Virus record (IMG/VR): IMGVR_UViG_3300045988_109049
Origin: a virus
Length of the DNA: 64,000 nucleotides
Reading direction: 5' to 3' (one strand)
Positions 11,334 to 41,014 of this stretch are shown here, piece by piece; the first letter of the stretch is position 1, and every line of letters starts with the position of its first letter. A program made the translations under genes and the position numbers. The notes below the pieces were generated by a model. The model was given only the letters and a program-made list of their open reading frames with translations, ran no database searches and was not told where the DNA came from.

Positions 11334-11376
11334 ATTTGAAAATTTTCTAATATTGTCAGGAAGAGATGTAAATAGA

Positions 11377-12003: not shown

Positions 12004-12015
12004 GCTTTTATTATT

Positions 12016-12771: not shown

Positions 12772-12946
12772 ATTCTTTTTCTACTAAATACATTTCATCA
12801 TTTTCAGCATCATATGCGACAGCAGAGTTATAGGGAGTAAACTTGTGAGCCCAACAGAATTGAACAAAATTAAAAATATTTGAAAAGCAGAATATTTTAG
12901 GATTATCCTGCAGCCAGGCTTCTCTTAATTTATCTATATTCATCAT
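12752..12946 (-). CDS. Hypothetical small protein
   Basis: ORF track. Start and stop overlap both neighbouring genes. Confidence 0.4.
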   Translation of the reverse strand: MMNIDKLREAWLQDNPKIFCFSNIFNFVQFCWAHKFTPYNSAVAYDAENDEMYLVEKEYENEFS

Positions 12947-13827: not shown

Positions 13828-13836
13828 ATACAACAA

Positions 13837-14082
13837 TTATTGATAAATAAATTTTAATAACTTCTCTTTTGATACCATCCCAGACAATTTCCTTAAAAGA
13901 TTACCTTCGTTATCTGTAACTAGAAGTGTGGGGAGTGACTTAATGTTATATTTGAGAGAAAGCCCTTCTCCATCCATAGAGTCTATATTAACACTTTCAT
14001 GCTCAATATTGCATTCTCTTAATAACTTTTCCAACTCTTTACATGGCCCACACCAATCAGCATATATCTTTATCACCTTCAT
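13837..14082 (-). CDS. Thioredoxin-like protein
   Basis: IKIYADWCGPCKELEKLL contains the WCGPC active site. ATG at 14082 is preferred over the extended track start at 14103. Confidence 0.8.
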   Translation of the reverse strand: MKVIKIYADWCGPCKELEKLLRECNIEHESVNIDSMDGEGLSLKYNIKSLPTLLVTDNEGNLLRKLSGMVSKEKLLKFIYQ

Positions 14083-14449
14083 TTGTTTCCTCCTCTTCTG
14101 CAATATCCACTATTTCCATACAATCTTCACACCAGTATTCATTATTTGCCCAATCTTCCTGTGCAAATTCTAAAGTATTAGCATCTACCCATGCATGCTT
14201 CAGAATACTTGTACCTCCACAATTATTACAATGTAGAGGTTTTCTATTATCTTCACAGCTTTCTTTCTCTTCTAGAGAGTTTAATACTAACTTTCTTGGC
14301 TCATCATCCTCCCATCTTACTTCTGGGAACTTAGAATCATCGCTAAGTATATCCCAAGCACCTTTGTCTGAAACCCAAACATAAGCAGTTTTTACAGGTT
14401 TCTCTTCAAATATGCTTAATTCTCCATCTCTATTTCTCGCAATATACAT
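14057..14449 (-). CDS. Hypothetical protein (Cys-containing C-terminal half)
   Basis: ORF track. CNNCGG...CEDC could form a zinc ribbon. Confidence 0.45.
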   Translation of the reverse strand: MYIARNRDGELSIFEEKPVKTAYVWVSDKGAWDILSDDSKFPEVRWEDDEPRKLVLNSLEEKESCEDNRKPLHCNNCGGTSILKHAWVDANTLEFAQEDWANNEYWCEDCMEIVDIAEEEETNEGDKDIC

Positions 14450-14499
14450 ATTTTATTCCTCCAAGAACTTTAATAGTACAAATATACCTATCATTGCCC

Positions 14500-14763
14500 T
14501 CATTTCGCATTGTCGTATGTAATTTCTCTCCAATAATTACTCCAAAGTCTAACTAATTGTTTTTCTGTATATGGTTCTGTTATACCCATATTTGCATTTA
14601 CATACCATATTCCGATGGAGTCAACAAGGATAAATCTATTCATGTCTACTTGATATATCTCATCATCGGGGTGTGCTTCCTTTACAGCAGTTGTACAGTC
14701 TCCATTTGTATAGCAGCTTGTTAGTATAATCGATACTAATAAAAGCAATAGGAATTTCTTCAT
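14500..14763 (-). CDS. Putative lipoprotein
   Basis: MKKFLLLLLVSIILTSC is a signal peptide with a lipobox Cys. ATG at 14763 follows the upstream stop at 14766. Confidence 0.55.
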   Translation of the reverse strand: MKKFLLLLLVSIILTSCYTNGDCTTAVKEAHPDDEIYQVDMNRFILVDSIGIWYVNANMGITEPYTEKQLVRLWSNYWREITYDNAK

Positions 14764-14765
14764 AG

Positions 14766-15566
14766 TTACTCCTCCCACTCGATTTTAATTGTGCCTAAAT
14801 ACGATGGTGGACAATTACTTACGGCTTCTTCTCTGTTAGGAAATACGCCAACAACTGATGTATCTCCATGATTATTTTTGCACAAGTTAATCCACCCCTC
14901 TTTCTTCTGGGGGAGCATCATTAAGTCATCTTTATATGTCGCGTCATCTTCAATTAGAACCTTACCTTTTTCATTATAACCATATACGGTTTCTTCTTTG
15001 GCAGTATCTTCTACCAAAGCAATGATTGGATAGCTTACGCCCTTGAATAAAAATTTTCTATCAAAGGAAATAATCCTTGCCTTTCTACCATCACGAGTAC
15101 ATACTGGCTTGCCAGCTTTGGCTGCTTCAAGGTCAAAGGGTTTAAGACTCAATTTCTTTTCTTCCATATTTTCTTTGTTTTGTTTAATTTCTACAAACAT
15201 TTCATTTATTAAGCATGAATATGTTGGATAATGATTTATGTGGCCATTCAATTTGCAGTCTCTTGAAAAATTATCATAAAAAGCACAATTATTACAAAGA
15301 GCATCAGAAACCTTTATTTTCTGGTATGATTTATTCTCTATCCTAATAGGCTCTCCGACCTTTTCAAGTTTCTTGAAGATTACAGATTTACCATCTTTTC
15401 TATAACATGATAAACATTCTCCTCTTATCTCAAATACATCACTACAATGAATATTACTCTTGGTATCTAAATCACAATTCTCACATCCAAGAGATTTTGT
15501 ATGAATACACTGATACCATTCTCCGTTGTACTCAAATATTTCTCCTACTTTTCTTTCCATAATCAT
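14766..15566 (-). CDS. Cys-rich hypothetical protein with a duplicated N-terminal module
   Basis: VGEIFEYNGEWYQC...CENC and VGEPIRIENKSYQK...CNNC look like two copies of one small module. Confidence 0.45.
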   Translation of the reverse strand: MIMERKVGEIFEYNGEWYQCIHTKSLGCENCDLDTKSNIHCSDVFEIRGECLSCYRKDGKSVIFKKLEKVGEPIRIENKSYQKIKVSDALCNNCAFYDNFSRDCKLNGHINHYPTYSCLINEMFVEIKQNKENMEEKKLSLKPFDLEAAKAGKPVCTRDGRKARIISFDRKFLFKGVSYPIIALVEDTAKEETVYGYNEKGKVLIEDDATYKDDLMMLPQKKEGWINLCKNNHGDTSVVGVFPNREEAVSNCPPSYLGTIKIEWEE

Positions 15567-15569
15567 ATT

Positions 15570-16097
15570 TCATTTTAAATCGAATATCTTACTTGAATCC
15601 CTAATAGAATCAATAGACATCTTAGCGCTTAATTGCCCCATAAATTCAGCAAAATTCATTGCCAAGTTCCAACTATTCCATTTGTGAGTAATCTCTACCA
15701 GTTCAAAAGCATTTAATTCGATAAGATTTTCGTTCTTTGTGCGAAGATCTTTAACAGCTTTTCGTATCGGTTCATATTTAGGACCTTTATATTTTGACGA
15801 GATGTCTATATCTCTCCTTTCAATAGTTCTGTATTCAGCTATATATGAAGGTAACATATTTGCTTGTATTGCATTATATACATCACTCTCCACGGGGCCA
15901 TATGGCATAGCATAGAAATTATCGAATATATCCAAAAGGTCATCGCCTCCTTCTTCCTTAGGAGCAGCAGCCAAAAACAGCAGTTTCATGGCTGTAAGTT
16001 TAGGAAACGGTTTGCCCTTAATCGTTTCATGATTATCCCGCCACTCTTCAAAAAGGTGGAGCATATAATCAAATGCCTCTATTTTATCTACTTTCAT
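15570..16097 (-). CDS. Panacea (DUF4065, SocA-like) antitoxin-domain protein
   Basis: LTAMKLLFLAA and FYAMPYGPVESDVYNAI match the Panacea/DUF4065 pattern (KLxKLLY ... W..GPV...vY). Confidence 0.5.
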   Translation of the reverse strand: MKVDKIEAFDYMLHLFEEWRDNHETIKGKPFPKLTAMKLLFLAAAPKEEGGDDLLDIFDNFYAMPYGPVESDVYNAIQANMLPSYIAEYRTIERRDIDISSKYKGPKYEPIRKAVKDLRTKNENLIELNAFELVEITHKWNSWNLAMNFAEFMGQLSAKMSIDSIRDSSKIFDLK

Positions 16098-27889: not shown

Positions 27890-28379
27890 AATTCTTTATA
27901 ATTTCTATTGCTTGAAGAAGCTGTTTCTTAGTATATACCTCAAAATAAATAGATTTCTCTCCTTTTTCTAGGTGTAATCTATCTAGGTAATGCAGAAACA
28001 TCTTCTTTTTAATATAGAATACATCATTCTCTATCCCTTTGGCTTCAATATACACATTGAGATTATTATACTTAAAATAGAAATCTGGAGTATATCTAAT
28101 ACCTACCAATTTTCCAGTCTTCTGTACTAGCATCCTCGATGGACAATTATTTACCCCCTCCTCAAGTCTCTTGGCTACCTGTCTATCTGTCTCCTTATCA
28201 TAATAAGGGGTTATTGGTTGGAACCCCTCCCATAAAGTAAAAGTCTTAGGCTCATATTGAGGATTGAATCCATGTTGCAGAAGGATATTATAAAATCTCT
28301 TCTCTATAACACTCTTAAAGGTAATGCTACTATCCTTGCAGACAGTAGCATTCCTTATCTTTTTATTTGCAGTTTTCAT
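27882..28379 (-). CDS. T7 endonuclease I-like PD-(D/E)XK nuclease (junction resolvase candidate)
   Basis: IRYTPDFYF...VYIEAKG matches the PDF...E-x-K core of the phage endonuclease I family. Confidence 0.5.
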   Translation of the reverse strand: MKTANKKIRNATVCKDSSITFKSVIEKRFYNILLQHGFNPQYEPKTFTLWEGFQPITPYYDKETDRQVAKRLEEGVNNCPSRMLVQKTGKLVGIRYTPDFYFKYNNLNVYIEAKGIENDVFYIKKKMFLHYLDRLHLEKGEKSIYFEVYTKKQLLQAIEIIKNYE

Positions 28380-28954
28380 TTAAAGTCAAAACATTCTTGC
28401 GTTAGCAAATTTTGAAGCTCTTCCAATAATCCAAGAGCAATTTGGGCTTCTCTGGCAGATCTGAAAGCAGCGAAGTTTTTGTAATCCTTGATACATCCTT
28501 TTCTCAGGTTATAAACTTTCATACTAATTATATCTACCATATATATGTCAGGGCTATTACTAATATGATCTTCATAATTGGCATCTAGATCGATAGCTAT
28601 TTCCCTTAAGAACATAGTATATAGTGAAGCTGGACAAATATTAAGTAAGGTAAAAAGGAATTCCATAGAATTCTCTTCATTTAGACTGGATTTTTGGCAT
28701 ATTTTCCTAAGATAATACTCTACATCTTTTTCAGATTTAAGGGGTCCTTCTTCTAGATCTTCTCTCTCTACTATTAAACCTTTTTTAATTAGTTTACTTA
28801 TGCTATTAGAAAGTACAATAAATTCTTGAATTACAGAAAAGTAATCTCCCCTACGTACTCTTCTTATAACGTCACCCATTTTTACTTCTTCACCTGCTTT
28901 AGTGTAATACCTTTTCTTATTCATATTTTTCTGTTTAATGTCAATATTCTTCAT
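28376..28954 (-). CDS. Hypothetical protein
   Basis: ORF track. Confidence 0.4.
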   Translation of the reverse strand: MKNIDIKQKNMNKKRYYTKAGEEVKMGDVIRRVRRGDYFSVIQEFIVLSNSISKLIKKGLIVEREDLEEGPLKSEKDVEYYLRKICQKSSLNEENSMEFLFTLLNICPASLYTMFLREIAIDLDANYEDHISNSPDIYMVDIISMKVYNLRKGCIKDYKNFAAFRSAREAQIALGLLEELQNLLTQECFDFK

Positions 28955-29432
28955 ACCATTTTATGGAATACCCATAAATATCTCTTAATTTTTTATCTAT
29001 TTCATCAAATAGATAATGAGGCATCTTTGTCCCACTCCTTGCAAAGTATGCAGGATGCTCAATTTTTAAAATGTGATTAAATCTTTTATTAATATATAGA
29101 TCAAATGTTTGAGCTTGCTTACCGAATAATACATATATAATGGAACAAGAACATTCAGATAGATTCTTTAATAGTTTGGCTATGAATGGTCTCCAAACCA
29201 TGACATGAGAACCTATTTTATTCATCTCCACTGTGAGGGCAGAATTAATCATTAATATACCCTGCTTGGCCCAACTCTCTAAAGTTTGGTCAAAGATAAT
29301 ATTATTGTGGGGAATTTCAAAATCTATTACTGCTTCTTTTATCACTTGAAGAGAAGGAGATAAATTCTCTTCTAAGACTTCCTTCCTATTTCCAAATAAT
29401 ACACCAGTGGCTATTCCTTTCTGGGGATAAGG
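28941..29432 (-). CDS. ung: Uracil-DNA glycosylase (family 1-like), exon 2
   Basis: PYPQKGIATGVLF completes GQD|PY. Also present: NSALTVE..GSH, LFGKQAQ and EHPAYFARSG (compare HPSPLS). Confidence 0.8.
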   Translation of the reverse strand, partial: PYPQKGIATGVLFGNRKEVLEENLSPSLQVIKEAVIDFEIPHNNIIFDQTLESWAKQGILMINSALTVEMNKIGSHVMVWRPFIAKLLKNLSECSCSIIYVLFGKQAQTFDLYINKRFNHILKIEHPAYFARSGTKMPHYLFDEIDKKLRDIYGYSIKWYEEY

Positions 29433-30366
29433 CAATTTGTTACCCTAACAGCTCTTTATCTGTTAGTTCTATATGTTACCATATAGTTCGGACTATATCT
29501 TCATTGTTTACAATGCAGGGCACTCGTGTCAGGTTTATTATTTGAGCTATTCACCTGTTAGTCTCTGAACCTTCTACATACTTTTATGCTCTTCTGTAGC
29601 TTGGCTGCTGATTGACTCATTAAGTTGTTCCAGCAATTCACCCTGTTTATCCAGAACCCTTCTTTTACTATAAGTAATTAATTTATACTGCATAGATGGA
29701 ATAACAAAATCTTTAATCAGCTCTACAAATTTAGGAAAATCCTTAGCTTGCAGATACATACTATTATCATGCTTGCCTACAGTAAAATGTAAATCAAATT
29801 TATCTAATAATATATTAGCTAATAAAGATTGTTCTTCTAAAGTAAAAGAACAAGTAGATAAGATACATGAATTTTTAGTTACATAACCATCGTCCATATA
29901 CCATATAGCTAAACCTAAAGTATCCATATCTTTTACAAATTCTTCAAAAACTCTTTTATGACCATTAGAATCATAGTATTTTAATCTTATATTTGTAAAG
30001 ATAGGATGTAATCTAGATTTAAATCTATACCCTACTAATTCGTGTGAATATCTTTTATTATTTATATGATACTCAACTATAGGAGATACTAAATTATACT
30101 TATTTAGTATATTCCATTTATACTCAAGATATTCTTTTTGTTTTTCAGAATGTGCTATACTAAGACACATATTCTTAGTTTTACTTCCTACTGAACAAAA
30201 ACATCCATCTCCTAATAAACTTCCTATAAGAAGTTGTTTTAAGTCATTACCCATTTCTAAATCTTTATGATTCTTCATACTATCAAAATTTTTAATAGTA
30301 CAAAGATAAGGTATTTGACCTAATATTACAATACTTTAAGTAAATTATTTATAGTTACTTATTAAA
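29433..30366 (-). mobile_element. Group I intron in the UDG catalytic GQDPY motif
   Basis: The 5' exon ends in gaT (30367) and the intron ends in aaattG (29433). Q caatcagcagccaag lies at 29600-29613, R ggttcagagacta at 29559-29571 and S aagatatagtc at 29491-29501. These are followed by a GUAA hairpin, a second hairpin and ggtaacaaattg. Confidence 0.85.
29574..30278 (-). CDS. Intron-encoded LAGLIDADG homing endonuclease
   Basis: LLIGSLLGDGCF and LAIWYMDDGYV are the two LAGLIDADG motifs. Confidence 0.8.
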   Translation of the reverse strand: MKNHKDLEMGNDLKQLLIGSLLGDGCFCSVGSKTKNMCLSIAHSEKQKEYLEYKWNILNKYNLVSPIVEYHINNKRYSHELVGYRFKSRLHPIFTNIRLKYYDSNGHKRVFEEFVKDMDTLGLAIWYMDDGYVTKNSCILSTCSFTLEEQSLLANILLDKFDLHFTVGKHDNSMYLQAKDFPKFVELIKDFVIPSMQYKLITYSKRRVLDKQGELLEQLNESISSQATEEHKSM

Positions 30367-30552
30367 ATCCTGTCCCAGAAACACTACCTTCAAATCCTCG
30401 AATAGACATAACTTAAAAGCCCTAAACACATCAGTTTGCTTAGGGCATACAGACTTTATCATATACTCCTTAGATAATATATTCATTACATGATTAAGCT
30501 CTACTTTATCAATGACCTTCATCCAACCTCCAAAATATTCTTCTGTCGTCAT
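30367..30552 (-). CDS. ung: Uracil-DNA glycosylase, exon 1 (62 aa)
   Basis: Ends ...VVFLGQD. The next three codons and the stop are intronic. Confidence 0.8.
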
Positions 30553-31259
30553 TCCAGTGCTAGTAAATCGTCTATATTATTTTCTAAAAGATTATTTAGA
30601 GATTCATTTATATCTTCACCTTGAGGTGGAGGAATAGTCTTTATGAACTCTTCAGCATTATCTATTTTAACTTCCACTTGGCTTAGGTATCCATAATCTG
30701 CCAATTCCGAAAGGAATGCAGGAATAACCCTTTTAATTATATGTTTCTCTAATATACCTGGTCTATCTAACAAGAATAGTGTCGGAGACACATGTACTAC
30801 TATCTTTCTAGTAGGAGCTAACCTGCGATCCTTCAATACGTAACAGGAGTTAACCATTAGTAACATATTCATGCATCTATCTAATATTATTCCTCTGCAT
30901 CCATAGTACACCTGATCTTTACAAGACACTTTACTCAAGGAGAATGAATCAAATAAGGCTCTAATTAATGAGCTATTTCCTAATGCAGTATTCTCTTTTG
31001 AGTTTAAGAACACAGGAGTAACTATTCTACATTTTCTTGACAACAACTCATCTAACTTACTCCCAGATAGTTTAGAGAATCGGCTCCTCAGTATAGTGGG
31101 AATCTCTATATTCATATCCTCTTTTAGAGTAGCTTCAACAAGAATTCTATACGGGTTTGTATTGTTAATTCCATATAGTGGAGGGGCAGATACTGAGGGT
31201 CCACTAATTAATATTGCTTTGTGTAAGTCCTTTATATATTTTCCTGAAAAAATCATCAT
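30549..31259 (-). CDS. Hypothetical protein, last gene of the E2-like/JAB/E1 operon
   Basis: Start overlaps the E1 stop (31256-31259) and stop overlaps the UDG start (30549-30552). No motif recognised. Confidence 0.45.
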   Translation of the reverse strand: MMIFSGKYIKDLHKAILISGPSVSAPPLYGINNTNPYRILVEATLKEDMNIEIPTILRSRFSKLSGSKLDELLSRKCRIVTPVFLNSKENTALGNSSLIRALFDSFSLSKVSCKDQVYYGCRGIILDRCMNMLLMVNSCYVLKDRRLAPTRKIVVHVSPTLFLLDRPGILEKHIIKRVIPAFLSELADYGYLSQVEVKIDNAEEFIKTIPPPQGEDINESLNNLLENNIDDLLALE

Positions 31260-32206
31260 GATATAGTTTTAAAATACATAGTTTCTGCATTATATTCAGT
31301 ATAGAACGGAAGGTCCCTGTCTATAAGTGGATTACATTTATTTGCTATAAAATTGACAAACAAATTAACTATAACGGATCCAATCATATTAGCCATAAAA
31401 GTAGTTTGTTTATAACTGCATACAGTAGGATCGGCCTCAAAGTCTGAGAACAAATAAGGTTCATATCTTCGTATATTATCCATATCGTCTCCTTTTATAC
31501 AGAACACTTGAAATTCTTCTGCTGCCAATCTGCCATCTATAAACAGACATTCTTCTCGTCTTTCTTTGGGTAATTCTAACACCTTATCAGTCCAATTCTT
31601 AAAAGCATCTTTTCTAGCTTTCATATTATCGAACCCACAAATAGTTATTCCAGTTATGGTTGAAGAGGTATCCAGTTTTTTAGTTAAAGCTGAAACACTA
31701 TAATAGTCTGAATAATTTTCTATCATATCTGCTATAGCATTTGCCTTATAAAGACCTATTTGAGACTTACTATATAACTGTCCAGACAAATTAACTGTTT
31801 CTACCTTATCTGGGTCATATAAAGTTAGTGACCTGACATCCATTCTAGATAACATAAATACTACATAGCTTCCTATCCCTCCTAATCCAGCTACAGTAAT
31901 ATTTTGCTTAAGTATCTTATCGAACCAAAGGGCAGAGCTAAATCTCGATGTTTCTTCTTTTATTAATAAGGTCTCAGAATTTTCAGGAATTTTATCTATA
32001 ACCAAATCCTGATCTATTAGTGCAGATATTAACATAGAATGTTCTTCTTCATTAAGATAAAATCTACTACCTTCTACAGTAATTTCACTAACAAATTCTC
32101 CATCCATAATAACTTGCCTAATACTGGAAATAGCCTTTCCTTTGATTAACTCTATTAAGTCTCCTACAGGTAGTGATTCATTAGTGTTTTGATCTAAGCT
32201 TTTCAT
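31256..32206 (-). CDS. ThiF/MoeB/E1-like adenylyltransferase
   Basis: ITVAGLGGIGSYVVFML is the GxGxxG loop. LTLYDPDKVETVNLSGQLY corresponds to DxDxVexSNLxRQ with Gly in place of Arg. Also GLYKANAIA and ICGFDNMKARKD (DNxxxR). A Cys lies in PTVCSYKQT. Confidence 0.7.
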   Translation of the reverse strand: MKSLDQNTNESLPVGDLIELIKGKAISSIRQVIMDGEFVSEITVEGSRFYLNEEEHSMLISALIDQDLVIDKIPENSETLLIKEETSRFSSALWFDKILKQNITVAGLGGIGSYVVFMLSRMDVRSLTLYDPDKVETVNLSGQLYSKSQIGLYKANAIADMIENYSDYYSVSALTKKLDTSSTITGITICGFDNMKARKDAFKNWTDKVLELPKERREECLFIDGRLAAEEFQVFCIKGDDMDNIRRYEPYLFSDFEADPTVCSYKQTTFMANMIGSVIVNLFVNFIANKCNPLIDRDLPFYTEYNAETMYFKTIS

Positions 32207-32221
32207 ATTATCATTTCTCCT

Positions 32222-33406
32222 TTAAAAAATATAATCACTTAATATTTTAATACATTCTTCTATGTATATATTACTATCAAGCTTCTCTAATTCTTCTTTG
32301 ATTGCAGTAGCACATAATGTAACTATCTCATCATTATCCACTCCTTGTCCAACCAAATCCTCATCTATTGTATACCAACACAGGAATTCTATAAATCCTT
32401 CAGCCCACTTCTTGAACATCTCCAGTCCTTCTTCTCCCTTCCCAAATCTTCTTTCATATATAGGTATCATTCCTGCTACCCAAGATTTTATATTTATTTT
32501 ACTTTCTCTAGGGATAACCACACTTCCTGTTACCAATTGAAGGGTTAAAGACTTTGCCAGACCTTTATTAAAACTATACTTCTTTGTATCATCTCTAAAT
32601 TTTAAAGTCTGCTGTCTCTGACCTAAATCATCTTCTTCCATTAGATTATATATATCCTTTTGTGTCAATGGTTCAAACTTGGAAAAAGGCTTATACGTGT
32701 GAAGAGGAGGATCAAATCTACTATTTATTTTCTGAATCTTAGACTCCTCTATCTCTTTAAGTCTGGATTCTAACTCTGTATATTCACTACACCCTTCTAC
32801 TTCTATATCAAGATAGTAATATTCCAATTCCTCAGTATTAGTTCCTTCAAAATTTCGAACTTCCTTGATTTGGGTGTTACCAAAACTAGGATAGCAGAAA
32901 CTTTCCACAATACACTTGTTAACCAATCTTCTAGTTATGGCTGCTGTATAATTCCCTCTATTATTAACTATTAAGGAAACAAAGTGATTTCTATCCAATC
33001 CTTCCTCTTTCAGAGTTCTTATATCTGTTCCACTGAAGAAGGTATCCATGTTATTATGTGAATGGATTAATCCCATATGACAATCTAGCAGCTCAGGGTT
33101 GTTCGCTACATAACTGCATACATCAGGAGACATATCAAACTCCGTATAAGCAGAACTTCCGATATCCATAACACATATATCTTCACATTTTATGATTAGA
33201 CTTCTATCTTCAAAGGATCCCTCAGATGTAAAAAATAGAACTCCAGACCACTCATCTTTCCATACCTTTCTACATATGTATCTTATTTTTTCTTCTACTT
33301 TCTTCGGTATTATCATTTTATAAGTAGTAGAATTCTTGGTCATCTGAATTATTTGTTCCTCTGCTTTTTTCTGACTCATCTCTGAGACTTGATTTATTCC
33401 TTCCAT
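32222..33406 (-). CDS. JAB/JAMM (MPN+) metalloprotease domain protein with unknown ~200-aa C-terminal region
   Basis: DEWSGVLFF supplies the conserved Glu. HSHNNMDTFFSGTD is an exact HxHx7SxxD JAMM motif (about 33023-33064). The true start may be a downstream ATG (33379, 33343 or 33316). Confidence 0.7.
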   Translation of the reverse strand: MEGINQVSEMSQKKAEEQIIQMTKNSTTYKMIIPKKVEEKIRYICRKVWKDEWSGVLFFTSEGSFEDRSLIIKCEDICVMDIGSSAYTEFDMSPDVCSYVANNPELLDCHMGLIHSHNNMDTFFSGTDIRTLKEEGLDRNHFVSLIVNNRGNYTAAITRRLVNKCIVESFCYPSFGNTQIKEVRNFEGTNTEELEYYYLDIEVEGCSEYTELESRLKEIEESKIQKINSRFDPPLHTYKPFSKFEPLTQKDIYNLMEEDDLGQRQQTLKFRDDTKKYSFNKGLAKSLTLQLVTGSVVIPRESKINIKSWVAGMIPIYERRFGKGEEGLEMFKKWAEGFIEFLCWYTIDEDLVGQGVDNDEIVTLCATAIKEELEKLDSNIYIEECIKILSDYIF

Positions 33407-34631
33407 ATTTACAATTTACTAATTTTAATATTCTATTCAATAAAAAACCTATTATATCTGGATTTAAGATGGTAGTAACATAATTATTAATATTATCTCC
33501 TTCTGTTATATGAACTACTACTTCTTTCCCCTTAAATGTGCCCATCACTCCTAGATTAGATCTATTAATCTCTAAAACATCCCGGGTATTAGTAATTCTG
33601 TAAATACTATCCTTAAATACAAATACCTTGGTTAAAATATTTTCTAGAGACTCTTCCTCTTTTCTTATAATTCCTTTTTGATATATATATCTTCCTTTGG
33701 TATTAAACCAAGTGATAAATTCATTACTTACTAGTAGTATAAATTTCGTTATATTCATACCAATAGAGTAACCCCCATTTTTGTAATTGAAGATAAGTTT
33801 TTTCTGTTCTATGAAATATTTAATGAAATCATAAACCATAGGCTTCAAACATGATGGTATATATACCGAATCATTAAGACCGATATGATCTGTTTTAACA
33901 CTTCTGTTAGAAGCCACCTCCTCTAATCTCCTATAAGGACCTCCACTTAGGGATTCTGTTGCTACATACTTCTCCAATTCTACACAAAACAGTCTCCAAA
34001 TATCCAAATCATAAAGAACATTCAAGGAATTTACTGTATTTCTTATAGGACCACTTCCCAAACATACTTGAAGAAACTCTTTAGGGTTCCTCTTTGGTAT
34101 TCCACATACATGGGAATGCATATAGTCACAAAAATACTGTGTCATTGTATATTCCCCTCTATTAAGAAGGAAGGATCCTACCATAGTACCGTCCATATCT
34201 ATTGTTACTTTGACATATAGTTCAGTAATATCTATAAAATGATCATATTCATTACTAACTCTTACTTCTGGGAAATATACTATGATGTGAGACTGTATCT
34301 TACTCCCTAATTTCAATATTACCTCATCCAGAAGATCCCTAATGCTAGGGATACTACTTAGAATTTCATCAGGTATGTCCTTTATTAATTGTATATTAGA
34401 CATTTTTTTCTTTAACCTGGATGACTCCTCAGTGCCCAGTGCTGTTTCAATACTTATATTATCATAAGTTTTCGAGAATTCCTCTTCTATTTCTGAAATG
34501 GTAGGAACATCTTGTAAGTCTACCTTATCTTCTCCAAAGAAATCTTCGAATATTTCTAATACACTTGTTATATTTCGTAAACGTTCCTTACATATTGCTT
34601 CTATAACTTTCCTAGTTTTTTCCCCTATCAT
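33318..34631 (-). CDS. Candidate E2/UBC-like protein (437 aa)
   Basis: A beta-rich stretch is followed by YMHSHVCGIPKRNPKEFLQVCLGSGP. This resembles the UBC HPN...G.ICL catalytic region (about 34050-34125). It sits directly upstream of the JAB and E1 genes. Confidence 0.35.
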   Translation of the reverse strand: MIGEKTRKVIEAICKERLRNITSVLEIFEDFFGEDKVDLQDVPTISEIEEEFSKTYDNISIETALGTEESSRLKKKMSNIQLIKDIPDEILSSIPSIRDLLDEVILKLGSKIQSHIIVYFPEVRVSNEYDHFIDITELYVKVTIDMDGTMVGSFLLNRGEYTMTQYFCDYMHSHVCGIPKRNPKEFLQVCLGSGPIRNTVNSLNVLYDLDIWRLFCVELEKYVATESLSGGPYRRLEEVASNRSVKTDHIGLNDSVYIPSCLKPMVYDFIKYFIEQKKLIFNYKNGGYSIGMNITKFILLVSNEFITWFNTKGRYIYQKGIIRKEEESLENILTKVFVFKDSIYRITNTRDVLEINRSNLGVMGTFKGKEVVVHITEGDNINNYVTTILNPDIIGFLLNRILKLVNCKYGRNKSSLRDESEKSRGTNNSDDQEFYYL

Positions 34632-34641
34632 ATCATATAAT

Positions 34642-34674
34642 AAAAAAAAAGCAGGTAAGAAGAATCTTACCTGC
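34642..34674 (-). terminator. Intrinsic terminator between the Ubl-like gene and the E2-like gene
   Basis: Perfect 9-bp stem gcaggtaag/cttacctgc (34651-34659 and 34666-34674), followed on the minus strand by T9. Confidence 0.7.
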
Positions 34675-34691
34675 TAGTAAACAAACCTTTA

Positions 34692-35321
34692 TCAAACAAA
34701 ATCAAACATTTCATCAATCTCATCATCTGAGTAGGTGGAGAGCTCTTTTTTTGGCTTTACAGTGTTAGAGAAGTACTTACCATTAAGAATATTAGTAGCC
34801 TCCTCTCTTTCCAAAATTTCAGCATCTACCAAAGAGTCTAATAGGCATTTAATAGAGGTTTTCAATGAAGTTACTTCTTTCTCTAAATCACCTTTAGGAG
34901 CTTCTTTCTTAGATGTAGAACCGTGATGCTCTTCAACCAGTTTCAGAAGATCTTCAGATTTACACAGAGTATAATTTTTCCCGTACTTTCTAATACAGGC
35001 ATCCTCCAAGTGATATTCTTTTATACTATTGTAAATCTCTTTTCTATTTACAGCTCCAGATCTAATCTTTTTATTAGGAGAAGTCAACATGAACACAAGC
35101 TCATTAGTAGTCTGTCCTTTATAAAGGACATCATGAGGAAGAATAGAATCATTATTGATTAATTCAGTTTTTGAAAGTCCTTCATAGAATGTCATGTCAT
35201 GATAATTTACGCCTGATCTATCCAGATCTCTCTTCAGTTCCCCTAATGTAGTAGCACTAGACATAATTACTTTTTTCTCTTGTGTTCTCGTAGATACGAT
35301 TGTGATTTTTCTTGCTTCCAT
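34692..35321 (-). CDS. Candidate beta-grasp (ubiquitin-like) N-domain protein with helical middle and acidic C-terminal tail
   Basis: Residues ~5-88 (KITIVS..KKVIMS..TTLGELKRDLDRSGV..MTFYEG..ELVFMLTSPNKKIRSG) follow the beta-beta-alpha-beta-beta ubiquitin pattern and end at Gly. The protein tail is DDEIDEMFDFV. Confidence 0.35.
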   Translation of the reverse strand: MEARKITIVSTRTQEKKVIMSSATTLGELKRDLDRSGVNYHDMTFYEGLSKTELINNDSILPHDVLYKGQTTNELVFMLTSPNKKIRSGAVNRKEIYNSIKEYHLEDACIRKYGKNYTLCKSEDLLKLVEEHHGSTSKKEAPKGDLEKEVTSLKTSIKCLLDSLVDAEILEREEATNILNGKYFSNTVKPKKELSTYSDDEIDEMFDFV

Positions 35322-35365
35322 AATTAATTTTATTAAATGTTTTTTTTTTTTACTTTTTTTTTCTT

Positions 35366-36367
35366 TTATTTTTCGAATAATTCTTTCATTATTTTAATGA
35401 AGTCATTCTTGTCTTGAAGAGAATGATAAAGGCCTGATATATCATTATCTCCTTCGAATTTAGGTAATATCAAATTAGTAAATCCTGTGGATTTAGCCAG
35501 TTTCTCCCCATCTATAAGTCCTGCTTCATCATTATCAAATAATATGAATATCCTTTTATACCTTCTTTTAAGCTCATTAATAGCTGTGTTGCTTATTCTA
35601 TAGCCTTCTCCCTGAACAGCTAAGGATGGAATTCCGGTATTAGCCCATAAGCAAAGAGCGTCTTTTACAGAAGAACATATGCATACTGAATCTCCATATT
35701 CAGGTATTTTTGTCCACAAACTAATTACAGACAAGTCATGTTTGTTACTCCATTTATAACCATCTTTGTTAAATGGTTGGTAAATCTTCAAAGTAACCTT
35801 TCCTTCTTTACGTTCTACATACGCATAGGCATATTTATCTGCTGCATACACTCTTCTCACTCCATCCTTTATCACGATCTTATGAGATATAGGATAAACA
35901 TCAGCATATTTTAACCATTCCAGACTCACTCCAAAGGATTCCCAGTACTCTATATCATGTTTCCTCCACTCTCTTATTTTGCATTGTAAGTCAATTGACT
36001 TATTATAACTTTTAGTAGTAATTATACTGCAGGAATTATAAGGTCTTATATTAGAATTATTAGAGAATCTAAGCATATCCTTATCTATTCTTTCTAAAAC
36101 TTCTACATATGATATCCCCCATAGTTTAGACAGAAGGTCAAATAATCCTCCTCTGTCTCCTGTAGATAAATCAACATAAAATATTCTCTTTCCATCTCTA
36201 GAGTATAACCCAAAAGAAGGTCTTTTATCTTCTCTGAGAGGAGAATTTATTATACAAGGTATTTCAGTGATACCCAAATAAAAGTATAGAATACTAGATT
36301 CTGTTGTTTTCTTCAATATGTCCTCTAAGCTAATTGAAGATCTTCCAGAAATAAATGGCATATTCAC
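35366..36367 (-). CDS. DnaG-like Toprim primase
   Basis: VCICSSVKDALCLW and ILFDNDEAG are Toprim E...DxD motifs. The gene sits in the replication module. Confidence 0.65.
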   Translation of the reverse strand: MNMPFISGRSSISLEDILKKTTESSILYFYLGITEIPCIINSPLREDKRPSFGLYSRDGKRIFYVDLSTGDRGGLFDLLSKLWGISYVEVLERIDKDMLRFSNNSNIRPYNSCSIITTKSYNKSIDLQCKIREWRKHDIEYWESFGVSLEWLKYADVYPISHKIVIKDGVRRVYAADKYAYAYVERKEGKVTLKIYQPFNKDGYKWSNKHDLSVISLWTKIPEYGDSVCICSSVKDALCLWANTGIPSLAVQGEGYRISNTAINELKRRYKRIFILFDNDEAGLIDGEKLAKSTGFTNLILPKFEGDNDISGLYHSLQDKNDFIKIMKELFEK

Positions 36368-36386
36368 ATTATTTTTCTATTTATTA

Positions 36387-37313
36387 TTATTTATCAAACC
36401 ACGGAGAGGATTGCATTGGCATGTCAAAAGGAGATCCTGTCTGGGTCAAGTCATTATTGAAGTCAGTCGGTTCTATTGTGTACTCCTTTAAATCACAGAC
36501 TTCAAATTCTGTAGTAGGATAAGCTCCAGCGGCTTTTCTGTTTTGAAGTTCTTCATCCAGTTTGCTATAATCTGCTACACTATTCTTCAGGAACTTTTGA
36601 ACATAAACAGCTTGATACTGTTTGCCATCTTCAGTAGTTCTTACTCCGAATAGACCTTTGACTCTGTTCTTAGGCTGCAAAGAGATTGCTTCTTTCAATT
36701 CTGAATAATCTCCTTTGAAATAATTTTCAATCTTATCCAATCTAGCTTCCGCATCAGCTTTATTAGGAAGTTCTACCACTTCTCCATTGGATTTTCTATA
36801 GGATTTATTAGGAATATTTAAATATGCCTTCAAGAATCCTGTAAGATCCTCTTCCCCTATATAAGCTGGCCTAAAATCAGCAGGTTCGAACCAATTAAGA
36901 TTGGATGGAATAGTGCCAGATTTTGCATTTTCTATAGGCAGCCAAGTAGTTTCTCCATATTTATTTATTACTTGGACTTTGCTTCCATCTCTGTTATATC
37001 TAACCTCCCTGGCAATGAAGAAAGATATTTTAGTTTTCATATCAATTCCATTGCATTTCTCAGGGTCTGTCTGTACAATAAAATCTATTCTTACTTGAGG
37101 AACAGTATGTTTATCACCTTCTGGACCAACTTCAACTTCACTTAAATATGAAGGACCATCATTAATAGTGGTATTATACAATTTTTCTAGTGTTTCCTTA
37201 TCAGGATTAACAGCTAATACACCTACTGAGCCTACTCCAATATACTTTTTAACTACACTACCTTCTGTAGATTCACTACCCGTAGCAAAAGCCATAAAAA
37301 TCTTGTTTGTCAT
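36387..37313 (-). CDS. Putative ssDNA-binding protein (tentative)
   Basis: Assignment rests on position between primase and helicase genes and a beta-rich N-terminal half. No diagnostic motif was seen. Confidence 0.3.
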   Translation of the reverse strand: MTNKIFMAFATGSESTEGSVVKKYIGVGSVGVLAVNPDKETLEKLYNTTINDGPSYLSEVEVGPEGDKHTVPQVRIDFIVQTDPEKCNGIDMKTKISFFIAREVRYNRDGSKVQVINKYGETTWLPIENAKSGTIPSNLNWFEPADFRPAYIGEEDLTGFLKAYLNIPNKSYRKSNGEVVELPNKADAEARLDKIENYFKGDYSELKEAISLQPKNRVKGLFGVRTTEDGKQYQAVYVQKFLKNSVADYSKLDEELQNRKAAGAYPTTEFEVCDLKEYTIEPTDFNNDLTQTGSPFDMPMQSSPWFDK

Positions 37314-37339
37314 ATTTAATATTCTCTTTATATAATGTT

Positions 37340-37377
37340 AATAACAATAATAATAATAATAACAATAATAATAATAA
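37340..37377. repeat. (AAT)n microsatellite interrupted by AAC
   Basis: aataacaataataataataataacaataataataataa, in the intergenic gap upstream of gene 36387-37313. Confidence 0.8.
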
Positions 37378-37384
37378 ATTTTGT

Positions 37385-37816
37385 TTATACAAATTCTTTC
37401 AAGGTAGGTCCTTGAACATTCTGCTCTTTATCTTCATGATCTATTTCTACAGGATTTGCTACAGAAGCTACTACAGGATCTGAGAAGACTTCATCATGAA
37501 TCTCATATACCTTCTTCTCCTCATTGAATACTACTATATTCGACTTTGGTTCATATTTAGTTATTTTGATGGGTTTCCCGTTTCTATCCATCTTGCCAGT
37601 GTCCTCTACTACTCTAGTTATGAGCTCTTCACTAGAATGTCCAGTAAGTATTCTTACTCCAACTTCATGACCCTCTATCTCATTGATCAGATCTTCACAT
37701 TCTTTGTTCAATTCTCTTATTTGCTCCAACAATTTATTCTTCTTGGTAACTAAGGAGCTTACATTTTGTGCTACTCTTTTCACAGTAGCTAGTTGTCTAA
37801 TTGAAATTGTTTTCAT
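37385..37816 (-). CDS. Hypothetical protein
   Basis: ORF track; N-terminal coiled-coil-like segment. Confidence 0.45.
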   Translation of the reverse strand: MKTISIRQLATVKRVAQNVSSLVTKKNKLLEQIRELNKECEDLINEIEGHEVGVRILTGHSSEELITRVVEDTGKMDRNGKPIKITKYEPKSNIVVFNEEKKVYEIHDEVFSDPVVASVANPVEIDHEDKEQNVQGPTLKEFV

Positions 37817-37817
37817 A

Positions 37818-38078
37818 TTAATAAGCTAAAATTGTTTTGTTATTACTATCTCTTATTTCTACTATATTTAATTTATTCTTGTAGTACTCTAGTATTTCAG
37901 TAAAGCATCTATCCGCTACACCAATGCTAAAAAGGATTGTAATAAAACATTTTGTTAATTCTGTATCTTTATTATGTTCTACACAACAATACTCTAGGAA
38001 CAACTCCATCATAGCTGTTCTAGTTAGTTTCCCTCCTGCATTGTTATTTATTATTTTAACTACGGTTTCCCTATCCAT
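37818..38078 (-). CDS. Hypothetical small protein
   Basis: ORF track. Confidence 0.4.
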   Translation of the reverse strand: MDRETVVKIINNNAGGKLTRTAMMELFLEYCCVEHNKDTELTKCFITILFSIGVADRCFTEILEYYKNKLNIVEIRDSNNKTILAY

Positions 38079-38445
38079 AAATCTCCTTTAACTTATCTAC
38101 TATTATAGATAAATCATTAGGGATCTCATCAGGAAGATCATCCAATGCCCCAAGACTGTCTTTAGCAGGATACTCCCCGTCAAATTCTTTCACAAAGTGT
38201 TTAATGGGTTTTTTATTCTCTGCGTCATATCCTACCTTGCCAAATAGAATAATATCGAACTTACCTTCAGGTGTTATATAGTCATCCACCATCTTTCCAG
38301 TAGTCTTAAACTTATAAGAAATGGAATCACCATTTTTATCTTTATACTCCTCATAGTGGGCACAACAGATAATATTCTTATTCTCCGGGAATCCCTTAAA
38401 GGCATCAAATATAAGACCCACACCATAGCCAATCTGCTTAGGTGT
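38071..38445 (-). CDS. AAA_24/Sak4-like RecA-family ATPase, exon 2
   Basis: TPKQIGYGVGLIF... continues exon 1 in frame after intron removal. The combined length of ~256 aa is typical for this family. Confidence 0.6.
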   Translation of the reverse strand, partial: TPKQIGYGVGLIFDAFKGFPENKNIICCAHYEEYKDKNGDSISYKFKTTGKMVDDYITPEGKFDIILFGKVGYDAENKKPIKHFVKEFDGEYPAKDSLGALDDLPDEIPNDLSIIVDKLKEIYG

Positions 38446-39420
38446 CATTTTGTTACCCTAAAGGCTTTTTATCCTTTAGTTCTATAGTTTCTTGCATTGT
38501 TACCATAGTTCAGCATACATTTTCATCCTCTAATTGAGGAGTCGGATACTCTTGGATACATTATATTCTCTATATAATAGAGGTTCAGTATCTATGCGTT
38601 ACACTGTGCAGTCCTTTTATCTACTGCATTTAGCACGGTATTAAGTGCTTTATCCCTTTTTCTTTTCAAAAACACTGTAGCATCTTTATACAGATAGTCA
38701 AAGATAGCTTTTCTTACTTTTATACTATAACTAAAATGTAAACTCCAATAGGGAGTGGTCTTTCTATTCTCTTTATAGATTACCCATTTTAGTTCAGGTA
38801 TAGCTGTTAAAAACCTATCTTTAATTTGCTCTGCAAATTTAGGTGAGTTACAAATCATACTGAAATGTCTATCACCAATAGACCCATCTCCATCCATAAA
38901 ACCTCTTATGAAATCTCTTTCATACTCCTGAGGTATATTAGGAAATTCAAAATCAGAATCATAAGTTTTTCTTGGTTGTATATTATATAAAGACCTTAAA
39001 TCATTTATAAGTTCCTTATCACATATTTGAAGAATAGTAGTTTGTTTCCTATTACCACTAGGTTGATAATATCTAAGATTGTTATCAGGAGCTATCTCTC
39101 TCTGTATTAATCTTAAAATTTCATCATCTTCAGATACACATCCAAATCTCAATCTTATTAATTTACTAGGTCTGTCTTTTCTTACTGATTCTTCTATAGA
39201 ACCATCAGCTACTAAATAGCCTAAAATATAGGCTTTAACTTCAGAGTCGATTATTTTAAAATAATCACTTTTGTGTTCCTTCTTATTAGGAATAAAGTCT
39301 CTCATATTATTTATATTTTGGTTGGCAAATATATAAATAATTTATGAGATATGCAATACCCTTCACCGTTTTTACCCGATTATTTTCACATAGATTGCTC
39401 TATGCAGGGACACACATTCT
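38446..39420 (-). mobile_element. Group I intron in the ATPase gene (divergent family member)
   Basis: The 5' exon ends in gaT (39421) and the intron ends in ggtaacaaaatG (38446). The 3' hairpin architecture is the same as in the UDG intron. The P7 halves are changed together: gcata (38593-38597) and tatgc (38513-38517). Confidence 0.7.
38592..39305 (-). CDS. Intron-encoded LAGLIDADG homing endonuclease
   Basis: ILGYLVADGSI and FIRGFMDGDGSI. Confidence 0.8.
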   Translation of the reverse strand: MRDFIPNKKEHKSDYFKIIDSEVKAYILGYLVADGSIEESVRKDRPSKLIRLRFGCVSEDDEILRLIQREIAPDNNLRYYQPSGNRKQTTILQICDKELINDLRSLYNIQPRKTYDSDFEFPNIPQEYERDFIRGFMDGDGSIGDRHFSMICNSPKFAEQIKDRFLTAIPELKWVIYKENRKTTPYWSLHFSYSIKVRKAIFDYLYKDATVFLKRKRDKALNTVLNAVDKRTAQCNA

Positions 39421-39816
39421 ATCCCATCCACCCTTCATGGCATTCGCCATATAGAAATCCTGAGCAAGATAATTCATATCATCTATAATAATATTCTTAT
39501 AGGGTGATTTCTTTATTATGTTAACAATTTCTGCAACCGCTGCAAATCTGTCAAGTCCTGTAAGATTATCTACCTGTACCCTATTTCCTGTAGCAAGAGT
39601 ATTTATATTTATAAGTTTCTGTGTAGGTTTACCTACATTCTCTACTCCGATACTACCCTCAATCAATTTAAAGTCAGGGTTAGGAACACCTCTGCCAATA
39701 CATTGGATAACATAGGTTTCTTTTGGATCAAGTCCCTTAATACCTAATTTATCCCTACCACAATAAGAAGTGGTTTTTCCAAACCCACTCTTTGCTAAAA
39801 CAAGTATCTTAGCCAT
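39421..39816 (-). CDS. AAA_24/Sak4-like RecA-family ATPase, exon 1
   Basis: Walker A VLAKSGFGKTT and Walker B-like NIIIDDMNYL. The exon ends ...KGGWD. Confidence 0.6.
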
Positions 39817-39823
39817 TCTAATT

Positions 39824-41014
39824 CTACTTTTTAAATTTGTTATACTTCTTATTTATTTTTCTTATTCTATAAGTGATAAAAGACTTATGTACCTTTTTTC
39901 CTCCCTTCTCTTCCTCTGATTCCAAAAAGTTATATACTTTCTGTATAGCTACCCTCTCAGTAGGTAAGGGCAATTCATGAAATACAGATGCTGCTCCATC
40001 GAAATATAAGGGGTATATATTACCTCCACTTCCACTATGTCTATCCTCTAAAATAGAGAGAAATCTTATTTTCTTTTTGAATTTGGTTATGTCATATCCC
40101 TCAAACTCTCTCAAACCATACTTAAAAGGACTGAATAATCCGAATATATAATCTATATCCCTTGAAGTTACCTTGCAATCTCCTAAACCATCCGTAGTGG
40201 GATAGAGCATATTCAACTTCCTATTTTCAATTCCTTCTTGACTTTGAGCTTGATGTTGCACAGCTACTATATGATATTCCAACTGGTCTCTTAAAGTTAG
40301 GAAGTATTTACTCATTTTCTCTATATTCTCTATCTTATTATAGCCTGACTCTCTAGATAAATTAGTAAAGTTATCTAAGATTATAACATGATAACATTCA
40401 GGGTCATTCCATTCAAAATAGTCGGAAACTTCTATATCTTTTAACTTTTCGGACAAACTATCTTTCACCTGTACAGTCTTTTTATGCAAAGTTCCCCTGG
40501 ATAAAGCATATTCTCTACAGAACTTATTAATGCCCGTGGGATTTTTTACATCATCTATAAAGGTCACTATCTCTTGGAATTTTTCAATATAAGTTTTATA
40601 TCTTTCAGATTCTATAAGTTCTAGTTCCCTCTCACCTAAAAGTTTCTCTTTCGATACTGACTTTAGTTGCTGGGTATCTATTCTTATATTATCCAACCTA
40701 AATAGTAAATGACATAAAAAATCGTAAAACTTGTCTGTTTTACTCATCTCTAAAGTAAAGTATAGAATCTTGAGATTATAGCTAGCATTTTTCTCTATTA
40801 TATCAAATATAGGTTCATATACTAACATGTAATCTACTAACTTACTCTTTCCAACTTTTTGTGAAGCAGTTATTATACCATATCTTTTTTTCTCAAATCC
40901 AGGAAAATCATAACTCATTCTCTTGAAGGGAATAGGAATACAGTTGGTTTTTCCTTCTATGATTCTATCTCTCCTTTCCTTTAAATCCTTTATAGCTCTA
41001 GAATAATCTTCCAT
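39824..41014 (-). CDS. DnaB-like replicative helicase
   Basis: Walker A ITASQKVGKSKL, Walker B HVIILDNF, and HIVAVQHQAQS typical of the RecA-like DnaB C-domain. Confidence 0.6.
   Translation of the reverse strand: MEDYSRAIKDLKERRDRIIEGKTNCIPIPFKRMSYDFPGFEKKRYGIITASQKVGKSKLVDYMLVYEPIFDIIEKNASYNLKILYFTLEMSKTDKFYDFLCHLLFRLDNIRIDTQQLKSVSKEKLLGERELELIESERYKTYIEKFQEIVTFIDDVKNPTGINKFCREYALSRGTLHKKTVQVKDSLSEKLKDIEVSDYFEWNDPECYHVIILDNFTNLSRESGYNKIENIEKMSKYFLTLRDQLEYHIVAVQHQAQSQEGIENRKLNMLYPTTDGLGDCKVTSRDIDYIFGLFSPFKYGLREFEGYDITKFKKKIRFLSILEDRHSGSGGNIYPLYFDGAASVFHELPLPTERVAIQKVYNFLESEEEKGGKKVHKSFITYRIRKINKKYNKFKK

Follow-up and report, generated by a model that had tools for sequence, protein, structure and literature searches.

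A gut crAss-like phage, of which a 64,000-nucleotide stretch was analysed (hereafter the window; IMG/VR virus record IMGVR_UViG_3300045988_109049), probably has a ubiquitin-like modifier system of its own, which has not been described before. The system centres on an open reading frame (ORF) of 209 amino acids (aa) on the minus strand (34692-35321), the orthologue of crAss001 Gp79, which would encode the precursor of a ubiquitin-like protein (Ubl). We consider such a system probable because a predicted Ubl-like fold and an invariant glycine occur together in the protein, and because its gene always stands beside those for an E1-like enzyme and a JAB protease. The core idea, namely a Ubl with an internal activating glycine and with JAB and E1 encoded next to it, survives all computational tests applied, and we are highly confident that the protein is a beta-grasp Ubl with a functional tie to these two enzymes. 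We also lean, with modest confidence, towards the whole mechanism proposed below. No published description of the cassette in crAss-like phages was found in a full-text literature search, the coverage of which was incomplete.

The 209-aa ORF contains the string SPNKKIRSG (residues 81-89), the stretch YNSIKEYHLEDACIRKYGKNYTLCKSEDLLKLVEEH (97-132) and the C-terminal end DDEIDEMFDFV. Its homologues number 5105 at 90% clustering, with 1312 cluster representatives at 50%; among the matches listed they are about 160-280 aa long and share the overall architecture of the target, and every matching phage record among those listed labels the gene only as 'hypothetical protein'. That the ORF is not a chance one is indicated by these homologues, by a strand order modelled at a predicted local distance difference test score (pLDDT) of 83-94, and by a downstream terminator that is kept in relatives.

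Residues 1-80 (35082-35321, minus strand) are predicted by AlphaFold2 to form a beta-grasp (ubiquitin-like) domain, with strands at 4-10, 15-21, 44-47, 65-72 and 74-80 and a helix at 26-36. In a Foldseek search of PDB, the N-terminal ~80-90 residues of the model matched ubiquitin and its variants, SUMO1, UBX, DIX and TINCR with a probability of 1.0, the domain-sized matches having template modelling scores of 0.5-0.73 (normalised by target); matches to the same domain in BFVD include giant-virus ubiquitins. An earlier first-pass annotation, made from the letters of the sequence, had read a beta-grasp spacing ending in KKIRSG into this part of the protein, and both the predicted fold and the ubiquitin, SUMO, UBX and DIX matches agree with it. 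The beta-grasp assignment is one of confident structure prediction rather than of homology.

The predicted domain is followed directly by a flexible tail, SPNKKIRSG (residues 81-89; 35055-35081, minus strand), with pLDDT below 50 at residues 83-90. The tail ends in Gly89, whose codon lies at 35055-35057 and which is followed by Ala90. We aligned 152 sequences, comprising the target, crAss001 Gp79, FpV4 gp53 and 149 cluster representatives, and found the glycine, which the same annotation had proposed to look for in homologues, in 152 out of 152, with Ser88 conserved in 97%, Lys84 in 94%, Ile86 in 91% and Lys85 in 88%. Even the distant FpV4 gp53 has KQVKSGG at this position (...VFMRPKQVKSGG). 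The other disordered linkers of the protein (about 134-147 and 182-194) are unconserved in the same alignment and contain many indels. Activatable Ubls are recognised by just such a glycine, invariant and placed in a flexible tail close behind their last beta-grasp strand; hence we infer a candidate site for JAB cleavage and E1 adenylation after Gly89, and we judge it reasonably probable that the protein is cut there.

The genes that would act on this site lie immediately downstream. With the Ubl gene begins a cassette of four genes, the others of which, on the same strand, are those for a 437-aa partner protein (33318-34631; crAss001 Gp78, FpV4 gp52), a 394-aa JAB/JAMM metalloprotease (32222-33406; crAss001 Gp77; Pfam Prok-JAB, E-value 2.8e-6) and a 316-aa ThiF/E1-like adenylyltransferase (31256-32206; crAss001 Gp76; Pfam ThiF, E-value 6.7e-18). 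This order is kept in every sufficiently long IMG/VR contig (80 loci retrieved), as well as in crAss001 and FpV4, although in FpV4 the gene for uracil-DNA glycosylase (UDG) has changed place and now precedes the Ubl gene. Each of the four genes occurs in 74 of 50,697 phage records, with an identical breakdown of organisms and hosts. The primase gene next to the cassette has a different breakdown (99 of the 50,697 records): it is present in cassette-less crAss-like phages and was undetected, among these records, in cassette-bearing Flavobacterium phages. Given the shared order and record pattern of the four genes, and the different pattern of the primase, the cassette behaves as one unit.

Both enzymes have kept their catalytic motifs. 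Across 74 orthologues, FpV4 included, the JAB residues Glu52, His115, His117, Ser125 and Asp128 (E...HxHx7Sx2D) are at least 97% conserved, and in the E1-like enzyme the conserved elements are GxGGIG (107-112), Asp131/Asp133, Lys154, Asp193-Asn194...Arg198, Cys263 and an N-terminal Ser-Arg-Phe. The ORFs of the 437-aa protein and JAB overlap by 89 nucleotides (nt; 33318-33406), as they do by 62 nt in crAss001 and 125 nt in FpV4. This overlap may be an artefact of taking the longest ORF, because JAB conservation starts near Met31, just after the upstream stop; as read from the sequence, the true JAB start codon is possibly that of Met31, an ATG at 33316.

In the E1-like enzyme a single ThiF adenylation domain was detected (residues 96-201), and the FpV4 enzyme is only 228 aa long. 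Its best solved relatives are UBA5, TcdA, MccB and UBA7. PADLOC profiles match it only through the E1 part of Cap2 and BilD, over query residues of about 90-185, the BilD match spanning profile positions 206-317 of 453. The best NCBIfam matches, which fall below the cut-off, are ThiF adenylyltransferases, and this raises the question of sulfur transfer. It could be imagined that a trimmed Ubl is adenylated and thiocarboxylated, and that it then donates sulfur to a nucleotide, tRNA, DNA or cofactor, in the manner of ThiS/MoaD/TtuB, QbsE-QbsD-QbsC or CysO-Mec+. The trimming of sulfur-carrier precursors by the JAB proteins QbsD and Mec+ speaks for this idea, as do the lack of a detectable E2 and the position of the cassette among nucleotide-metabolism and replication genes. 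However, the scan of the neighbours revealed neither a rhodanese, a cysteine desulfurase or a PP-loop thiolase nor any other sulfur-acceptor enzyme; the tail closes with Ser-Gly and not with Gly-Gly; the top Foldseek matches are ubiquitin, SUMO and UBX rather than ThiS or MoaD; and UBA5, the best solved relative of the E1-like enzyme, is a protein-conjugation E1. We therefore regard a sulfur carrier as improbable. Conjugation of the Ubl to proteins, as opposed to use as a sulfur carrier, is a possibility to which we give slightly less than even weight.

Two natural variants show where the precursor can be divided. In the phage genome cr106_1 the gene is split: a 92-aa Ubl ORF ends ...KKIKSG-KF*, and a 130-aa ORF, METKIM-TRNELIAEAKRLGF...EISDMFNFVER, encodes the C-terminal remainder. 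A free-standing HNH endonuclease gene (3157-3672) fills 516 of the 532 intervening bases. A group I intron is an unlikely cause of the split, given that the HNH ORF takes up 516 of the 532 bases and that the halves have their own stop and start. A phage of the same subfamily, cr116_1 (NC_055882.1), has neither the Ubl domain nor the 437-aa protein, JAB or E1, and its gap between primase and UDG holds instead a gene for an 82-aa protein, MSRKELYVKVKELNLQEEIKKKYGDNYT... (hhalign probability 96.6%, E-value 5.6e-10). This protein matches target residues 91-171 only, starts at the consensus Met91 (SG-A-M-S-R) and is without the acidic-hydrophobic motif that ends the target. From these two variants we conclude that the C-terminal module functions as a protein in its own right and that the Ubl can be separated from it, ending within two residues of Gly89. 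The variants match the product expected from a precursor cut at Gly89, without proving that cutting takes place. No further split of the cr106_1 kind was found: a scan for the exact junction returned the same genome only, and a scan of 134 loci gave no second case.

In cr116_1 the slot (11156-15620) contains the 82-aa gene, then rIIA, which is split by an intron-type endonuclease, and rIIB; this hints that the primase-UDG slot carries exchangeable host-interaction or counter-defence modules. It was also observed that HNH homing-endonuclease genes have repeatedly inserted at the Ubl locus, either inside the gene, as in cr106_1, or 3' of it. In three IMG/VR loci there is a ~620-bp insertion between the Ubl and 437-aa genes, which begins MVEIWRPIQGYEGLYEVSNLGNV.

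The same data can be set against an uncleaved adaptor. The protein might remain one chain in which the Ubl serves as an interaction module, as in UBL-UBA shuttle proteins, with KKIxSG docking E1, JAB or the 437-aa protein and the C-terminal part binding other partners. Gly89 is internal in 133 of 134 loci, being two residues before the stop in cr106_1, and the full-length architecture is found in those 133 loci and in the best 150 of the 1312 cluster representatives. The lack of a detectable E2 and the likeness of the C-terminal motif to a docking peptide fit an adaptor as well. On the other hand, an invariant glycine that ends a disordered tail after the last strand is a hallmark of activatable Ubls, the catalytic motifs of JAB and E1 are intact and their genes strictly co-occur with this one, and the halves are separate in cr106_1 while the C-terminal half stands alone in cr116_1. 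An adaptor that is never cut thus seems unlikely to us.

The C-terminal half is modular. Residues 93-133 (34923-35045, minus strand) are predicted to form a three-helix module, with helices at 93-102, 106-113 and 122-133 and the consensus RxExYxxIKxxxLQxxCxxxFGKNFTxCKTxDLxxLI, in which Arg93 (99%), Thr118 (98%) and Leu125 (98%) are conserved, as is Leu105. A predicted helical hairpin follows (143-179; 34785-34895, minus strand; helices 143-166 and 172-179), which is of low conservation and variable length and contains indels. The protein ends in an acidic-hydrophobic motif, S-x-Y-S-D-D-E-I-D-E-M-F-D-F-V (195-209; 34695-34739, minus strand; defined from the alignment), which in the family reads [SP]-Y-S-x-x-E-I-D-x-M-F, followed in most homologues by 0-5 variable residues. 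It is predicted to be helical at 199-205, and is a probable partner-docking peptide. In cr126_1 the C-terminal half of the orthologue (308 aa; NC_055884.1, 6001-6927) is interrupted, upstream of the helical hairpin, by the C-terminal domain of ribosomal L7/L12 (PF00542, E-value 5e-12), which underlines how modular and linker-rich this half is.

Two earlier ideas about this half fared less well than those about the Ubl domain. A helix-extended-helix-like stretch had been proposed, where AlphaFold2 gives three short helices; SAP, HeH and Rho_N identities of residues 93-133 were rejected, there being no profile match for single sequences, for 31 members against Pfam or for a profile against PDB. 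The string DDEIDEMFDFV does stand at the C-terminus and its motif is conserved, but the proposed likeness to the acidic tip of single-stranded DNA-binding proteins (SSBs) was dismissed, as the distance of the motif from the C-terminus varies (0-5 residues follow it), as it is predicted to be helical and as no oligonucleotide/oligosaccharide-binding (OB) fold is predicted in the protein.

It would be tempting to see the protein as a replisome accessory, that is, a DNA-binding or replisome-recruiting factor with an SSB-like tail whose Ubl fold is incidental. The gene lies directly 3' of primase in crAss phages, the acidic-hydrophobic motif is conserved, and cr116_1 has retained the C-terminal module although it has none of the enzymes. 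Yet in FpV4, where UDG lies between primase and the gene, the gene stays with those for the 437-aa protein, JAB and E1, and its phyletic pattern tracks the enzymes and not the primase. Nor is an OB fold predicted, and the motif, whose place at the C-terminus is not fixed, does not occur in cr116_1. For the whole protein we find this very unlikely; it may apply to the released C-terminal half.

The cassette's 437-aa protein might stand in for a conjugating enzyme (E2). Its sequence YMHSH (170-174) and Cys190 are invariant and are shared with FpV4 gp52, as is Glu226-Ser-Leu-x-Gly-Gly-Pro-Tyr, and the cores of the two proteins match with an E-value of 1e-12. In its AlphaFold2 model (pLDDT 71), a helix and four strands are followed by a loop with the HxH, the cysteine and then helices. 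No fold match was found by Foldseek in PDB (best E-value 0.65), and there was no Pfam match. By eye the order of elements is UBC-like, but identity with an E2 was rejected on the Foldseek result, on an hhalign probability of 0.9% with UBE2D2, and on the lack of a Prok-E2/UQ_con Pfam match in 24 orthologues.

We propose the following mechanism. The components would come from the four-gene cassette, which lies among the middle-expressed replication genes of Steigviridae crAss-like phages and of FpV4-like Flavobacterium phages. JAB would cut after Gly89, freeing a Ubl with a C-terminal glycine and a C-terminal module with a function of its own. The E1-like enzyme would then adenylate Gly89, with the conserved Cys263 as a candidate acceptor, and the activated Ubl would be passed to protein targets without an E2, as in the archaeal SAMP/UbaA system. 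Alternatively, the 437-aa protein could take part in the transfer as a non-canonical carrier, a ligase or a target. More speculatively, the cassette might be a complete, self-contained phage Ubl-conjugation pathway, with a fusion Ubl released by JAB, a minimal E1 and, in the 437-aa protein, a non-canonical E2/E3 of new fold (HxH...Cys), which would act on phage or host proteins in a middle-phase host takeover or in counter-defence. This last proposal is tentative, and we think it rather less likely to be right than wrong.

The cassette also has a transcriptional feature that could set the ratio of substrate to enzymes. An intrinsic terminator or attenuator with an 11-bp stem, a 4-nt loop and nine T residues (34642-34675, minus strand) lies between the Ubl and 437-aa genes, the hairpin, AGCAGGTAAGA-TTCT-TCTTACCTGCT, being at 34675-34650 and the T run extending to 34642. 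All 11 pairs of the stem are Watson-Crick pairs, and five are GC. The terminator starts 16 nt past the TGA stop of the Ubl gene, and only 10 nt separate the end of its T run from the ATG with which the 437-aa gene begins. It is the sole strong canonical terminator in the 12-kb co-directional array 28000-40000. When a terminator was called downstream of the gene in relatives as a hairpin with a minimum free energy of at most -7 kcal/mol abutting at least five T, 90 out of 97 distinct relatives had one, with 43 different hairpin sequences, which indicates that the structure and not the sequence is conserved. Among the seven exceptions, three have a homing-endonuclease gene inserted and four retain a hairpin with an interrupted or weak T run. 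The terminator with nine T residues that the first-pass annotation had noted is thus real, but its stem had been given as 9 bp. An Rfam match to L20_leader over the terminator (32 bits; gathering score 58.7) was dismissed as a terminator-hairpin artefact.

The spacing from terminator to next start is similarly short in relatives. The gap between T run and ATG leaves no room for a promoter, and the enzyme genes would need read-through to be transcribed, so that Ubl mRNA should exceed the mRNAs of the enzymes. On this reading of the sequence, a leaky terminator would set an excess of substrate over enzymes. A scan for sigma-70 promoters gave counts at shuffle level, the sigma-70 model being uninformative for Bacteroides. 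On the upstream side, the Ubl start is separated from the primase stop by a 44-nt leader (35322-35365, minus strand; AAGAAAAAAAAAGTAAAAAAAAAAAACATTTAATAAAATTAATT) that is extremely rich in A on the coding strand, in which direct reading of the sequence found no terminator and which may act as a translation enhancer in Bacteroidota.

Several observations weigh against the precursor and its proposed processing, and they should be set beside the evidence given above. The alignment used as AlphaFold2 input was shallow, consisting of 20 sequences, each at least 52% identical to the query. The Foldseek E-values are modest (~1e-3), because the whole chain was the query. No membership of a Ubl family was found at the sequence level in Pfam, NCBIfam or PADLOC, nor any meaningful PDB profile match, and in hhalign the Ubl aligned with ubiquitin at a probability of 0.1%, giving no sequence link to the ubiquitin, ThiS or MoaD families. 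The last two residues of the tail are Ser-Gly instead of Gly-Gly, and its length of nine residues exceeds that of the ubiquitin tail. The split gene was found in one genome only (cr106_1) of 134 loci. In a single phage lineage, a conserved gene order partly reflects common descent and not selection. Finally, no E2-like protein was found for the cassette, either in the tests on the 437-aa protein or in Pfam, PHROGs, PADLOC and NCBIfam searches with a 236-aa protein encoded downstream of E1.

The window comes from a crAss-like phage of the Steigviridae; its 30.5-36.4 kb region is 77.5% identical to the uncultured phage cr128_1 (Steigviridae, Asinivirinae). All the genes discussed are on the minus strand, within a replication and nucleotide-metabolism module. 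Upstream of the Ubl gene are a 308-aa protein (36387-37313) and the adjoining DnaG-type primase (35366-36367); downstream of E1 come the 236-aa protein (30549-31259; crAss001 Gp75) and UDG (28941-30552, interrupted). The crAss001 orthologues of this block are Gp81, Gp80 and then Gp79 through Gp74. In crAss001 the replication block consists of middle genes that are switched on at 10-30 min post infection, and this block is probably transcribed by the host RNA polymerase (PMC8375218).

Some further observations concern this neighbourhood. The 236-aa protein is conserved in most crAss loci and has an acidic-hydrophobic end of its own, NNIDDLLALE; it has zero matches in Pfam, PHROGs, PADLOC and NCBIfam, and no counterpart was detectable in a comparison with FpV4 gp49. 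UDG is split into an N-terminal piece of 65 aa (30355-30552) and a C-terminal piece of 164 aa (28941-29435), both on the minus strand, with a group I intron between them (Rfam RF00028, 29469-29716, 85.9 bits) that carries a LAGLIDADG-type ORF (29574-30278). A Sak4-like ATPase (38071-39816, minus strand) is likewise in two pieces, the ORF at 39400-39816 corresponding to residues 5-101 and that at 38071-38448 to residues 114-226 of the ATPase that is intact in cr128_1; a second LAGLIDADG-type ORF (38592-39305) is located in between, and Rfam found no intron there. Upstream of the 308-aa gene there is an intergenic, AAT/AAC-rich, microsatellite-like tract, aataacaataataataataataacaataataataataaa, at 37338-37378. 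Three metagenome-assembled genomes, labelled Clostridium, Acholeplasmatales and Bacilli, hold crAss-like contigs with the Ubl gene, one of which, 94 kb long, is identical in range to an IMG/VR crAss contig. Cellular homologues were accordingly not accepted: a scan of genome contigs returned these three crAss contigs only, which were most likely mis-binned.

If our interpretation is true, its significance lies in which side holds the chemistry. Bacterial Ubl conjugation has up to now been characterised as a host weapon against phages, as in type II CBASS and Bil and likely so in Bub, and a conserved Ubl-JAB-E1 cassette on the phage side would mean that bacterial viruses use the same chemistry, whether for counter-defence or for replication control. 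The combination of no recognisable E2 with a conserved partner that has no fold match in PDB could reveal a new conjugation mechanism. Moreover, Steigviridae crAss-like phages are among the most abundant human gut viruses, and cultured members (crAss001 on B. intestinalis, DAC15 on B. thetaiotaomicron and FpV4 on F. psychrophilum) make the hypothesis testable.

Comparison with known systems helps to place the cassette. In Bil (BilABCD), as here, a Ubl gene is clustered with genes for a JAB/JAMM peptidase and an E1, and the JAB active-site motif is intact in the phage protein. The JAB protein BilC trims BilA after Gly97, at a Gly97-Ala98 junction, and also cleaves a BilA-GFP fusion (PMC10557695); the junction proposed here is Gly89-Ala90. 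However, Bil defends a host against phages, whereas the present cassette belongs to a lytic phage. A canonical E2, BilB, is part of Bil, and none was found here; the Bil E1 has a tandem IAD-AAD-CYS arrangement, compared with 316 aa and one detected ThiF domain; and 120 residues follow the glycine here, compared with one residue in the BilA of E. aridi. The comparison with 'Bil-type' systems, which the first-pass annotation had drawn, is too specific in view of the missing E2 and the short E1 with its single detected ThiF domain.

In type I Bub, similarly, the Ubl is N-terminal in a larger protein, and the JAB cuts after a conserved glycine, the JAB domain of BubCD cleaving the Ubl-E2 fusion BubAB after Gly229 (PMC11601596). 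There, however, the C-terminal partner is an E2 and JAB and E1 are fused, whereas here an all-helical module is predicted and the enzymes are encoded by separate genes; a Pfam scan of the neighbours gave no match to DUF6527/BubE. Type II CBASS has a CD-NTase as substrate and an E1-E2 fusion, Cap2, whose PADLOC profile is matched here through its E1 part only; a CD-NTase was not recognised when the genes of the cassette and the ORFs flanking it were scanned. The cassette is not a member of Bil, Bub or CBASS.

Fusion precursors are also familiar from eukaryotes. In UBA52 and RPS27A, ubiquitin is fused to an unrelated functional protein and is released by a deubiquitinase, and UFM1 ends in a single glycine after trimming. 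The phage protein would likewise be a fusion precursor, with the difference that its processing enzyme would be the JAMM protease encoded in the cassette; no sequence relationship of the Ubl domain to ubiquitin or UFM1 was found by PDB profile search or, for ubiquitin, by hhalign. The archaeal set SAMP/UbaA/HvJAMM1 and the Thermus set TtuB/TtuC combine a beta-grasp Ubl, a single-domain E1-like enzyme and a JAMM protease with no E2 or E3, and in SAMP/UbaA and TtuB/TtuC one E1 serves conjugation and/or sulfur transfer. Unlike the phage precursor, the Ubls of these cellular systems end in Gly-Gly and are free-standing or undergo little trimming, and we know of no partner like the 437-aa protein in them. 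In QbsE/QbsD/QbsC and CysO/Mec+/MoeZ, the C-terminus of a beta-grasp carrier is trimmed by a JAMM hydrolase, and a ThiF-like E1 is present as well; these systems differ in having sulfur-transfer or acceptor enzymes and Gly-Gly termini, neither of which was recognised here. Because it has one detected adenylation domain and no E2, the cassette is by analogy closest in gene content to the E2-independent systems (SAMP/UbaA/JAMM and TtuB/TtuC) or to the JAB-trimmed sulfur carriers (QbsE/QbsD and CysO/Mec+). We conclude that it is a variation on the known Ubl-E1-JAB systems.

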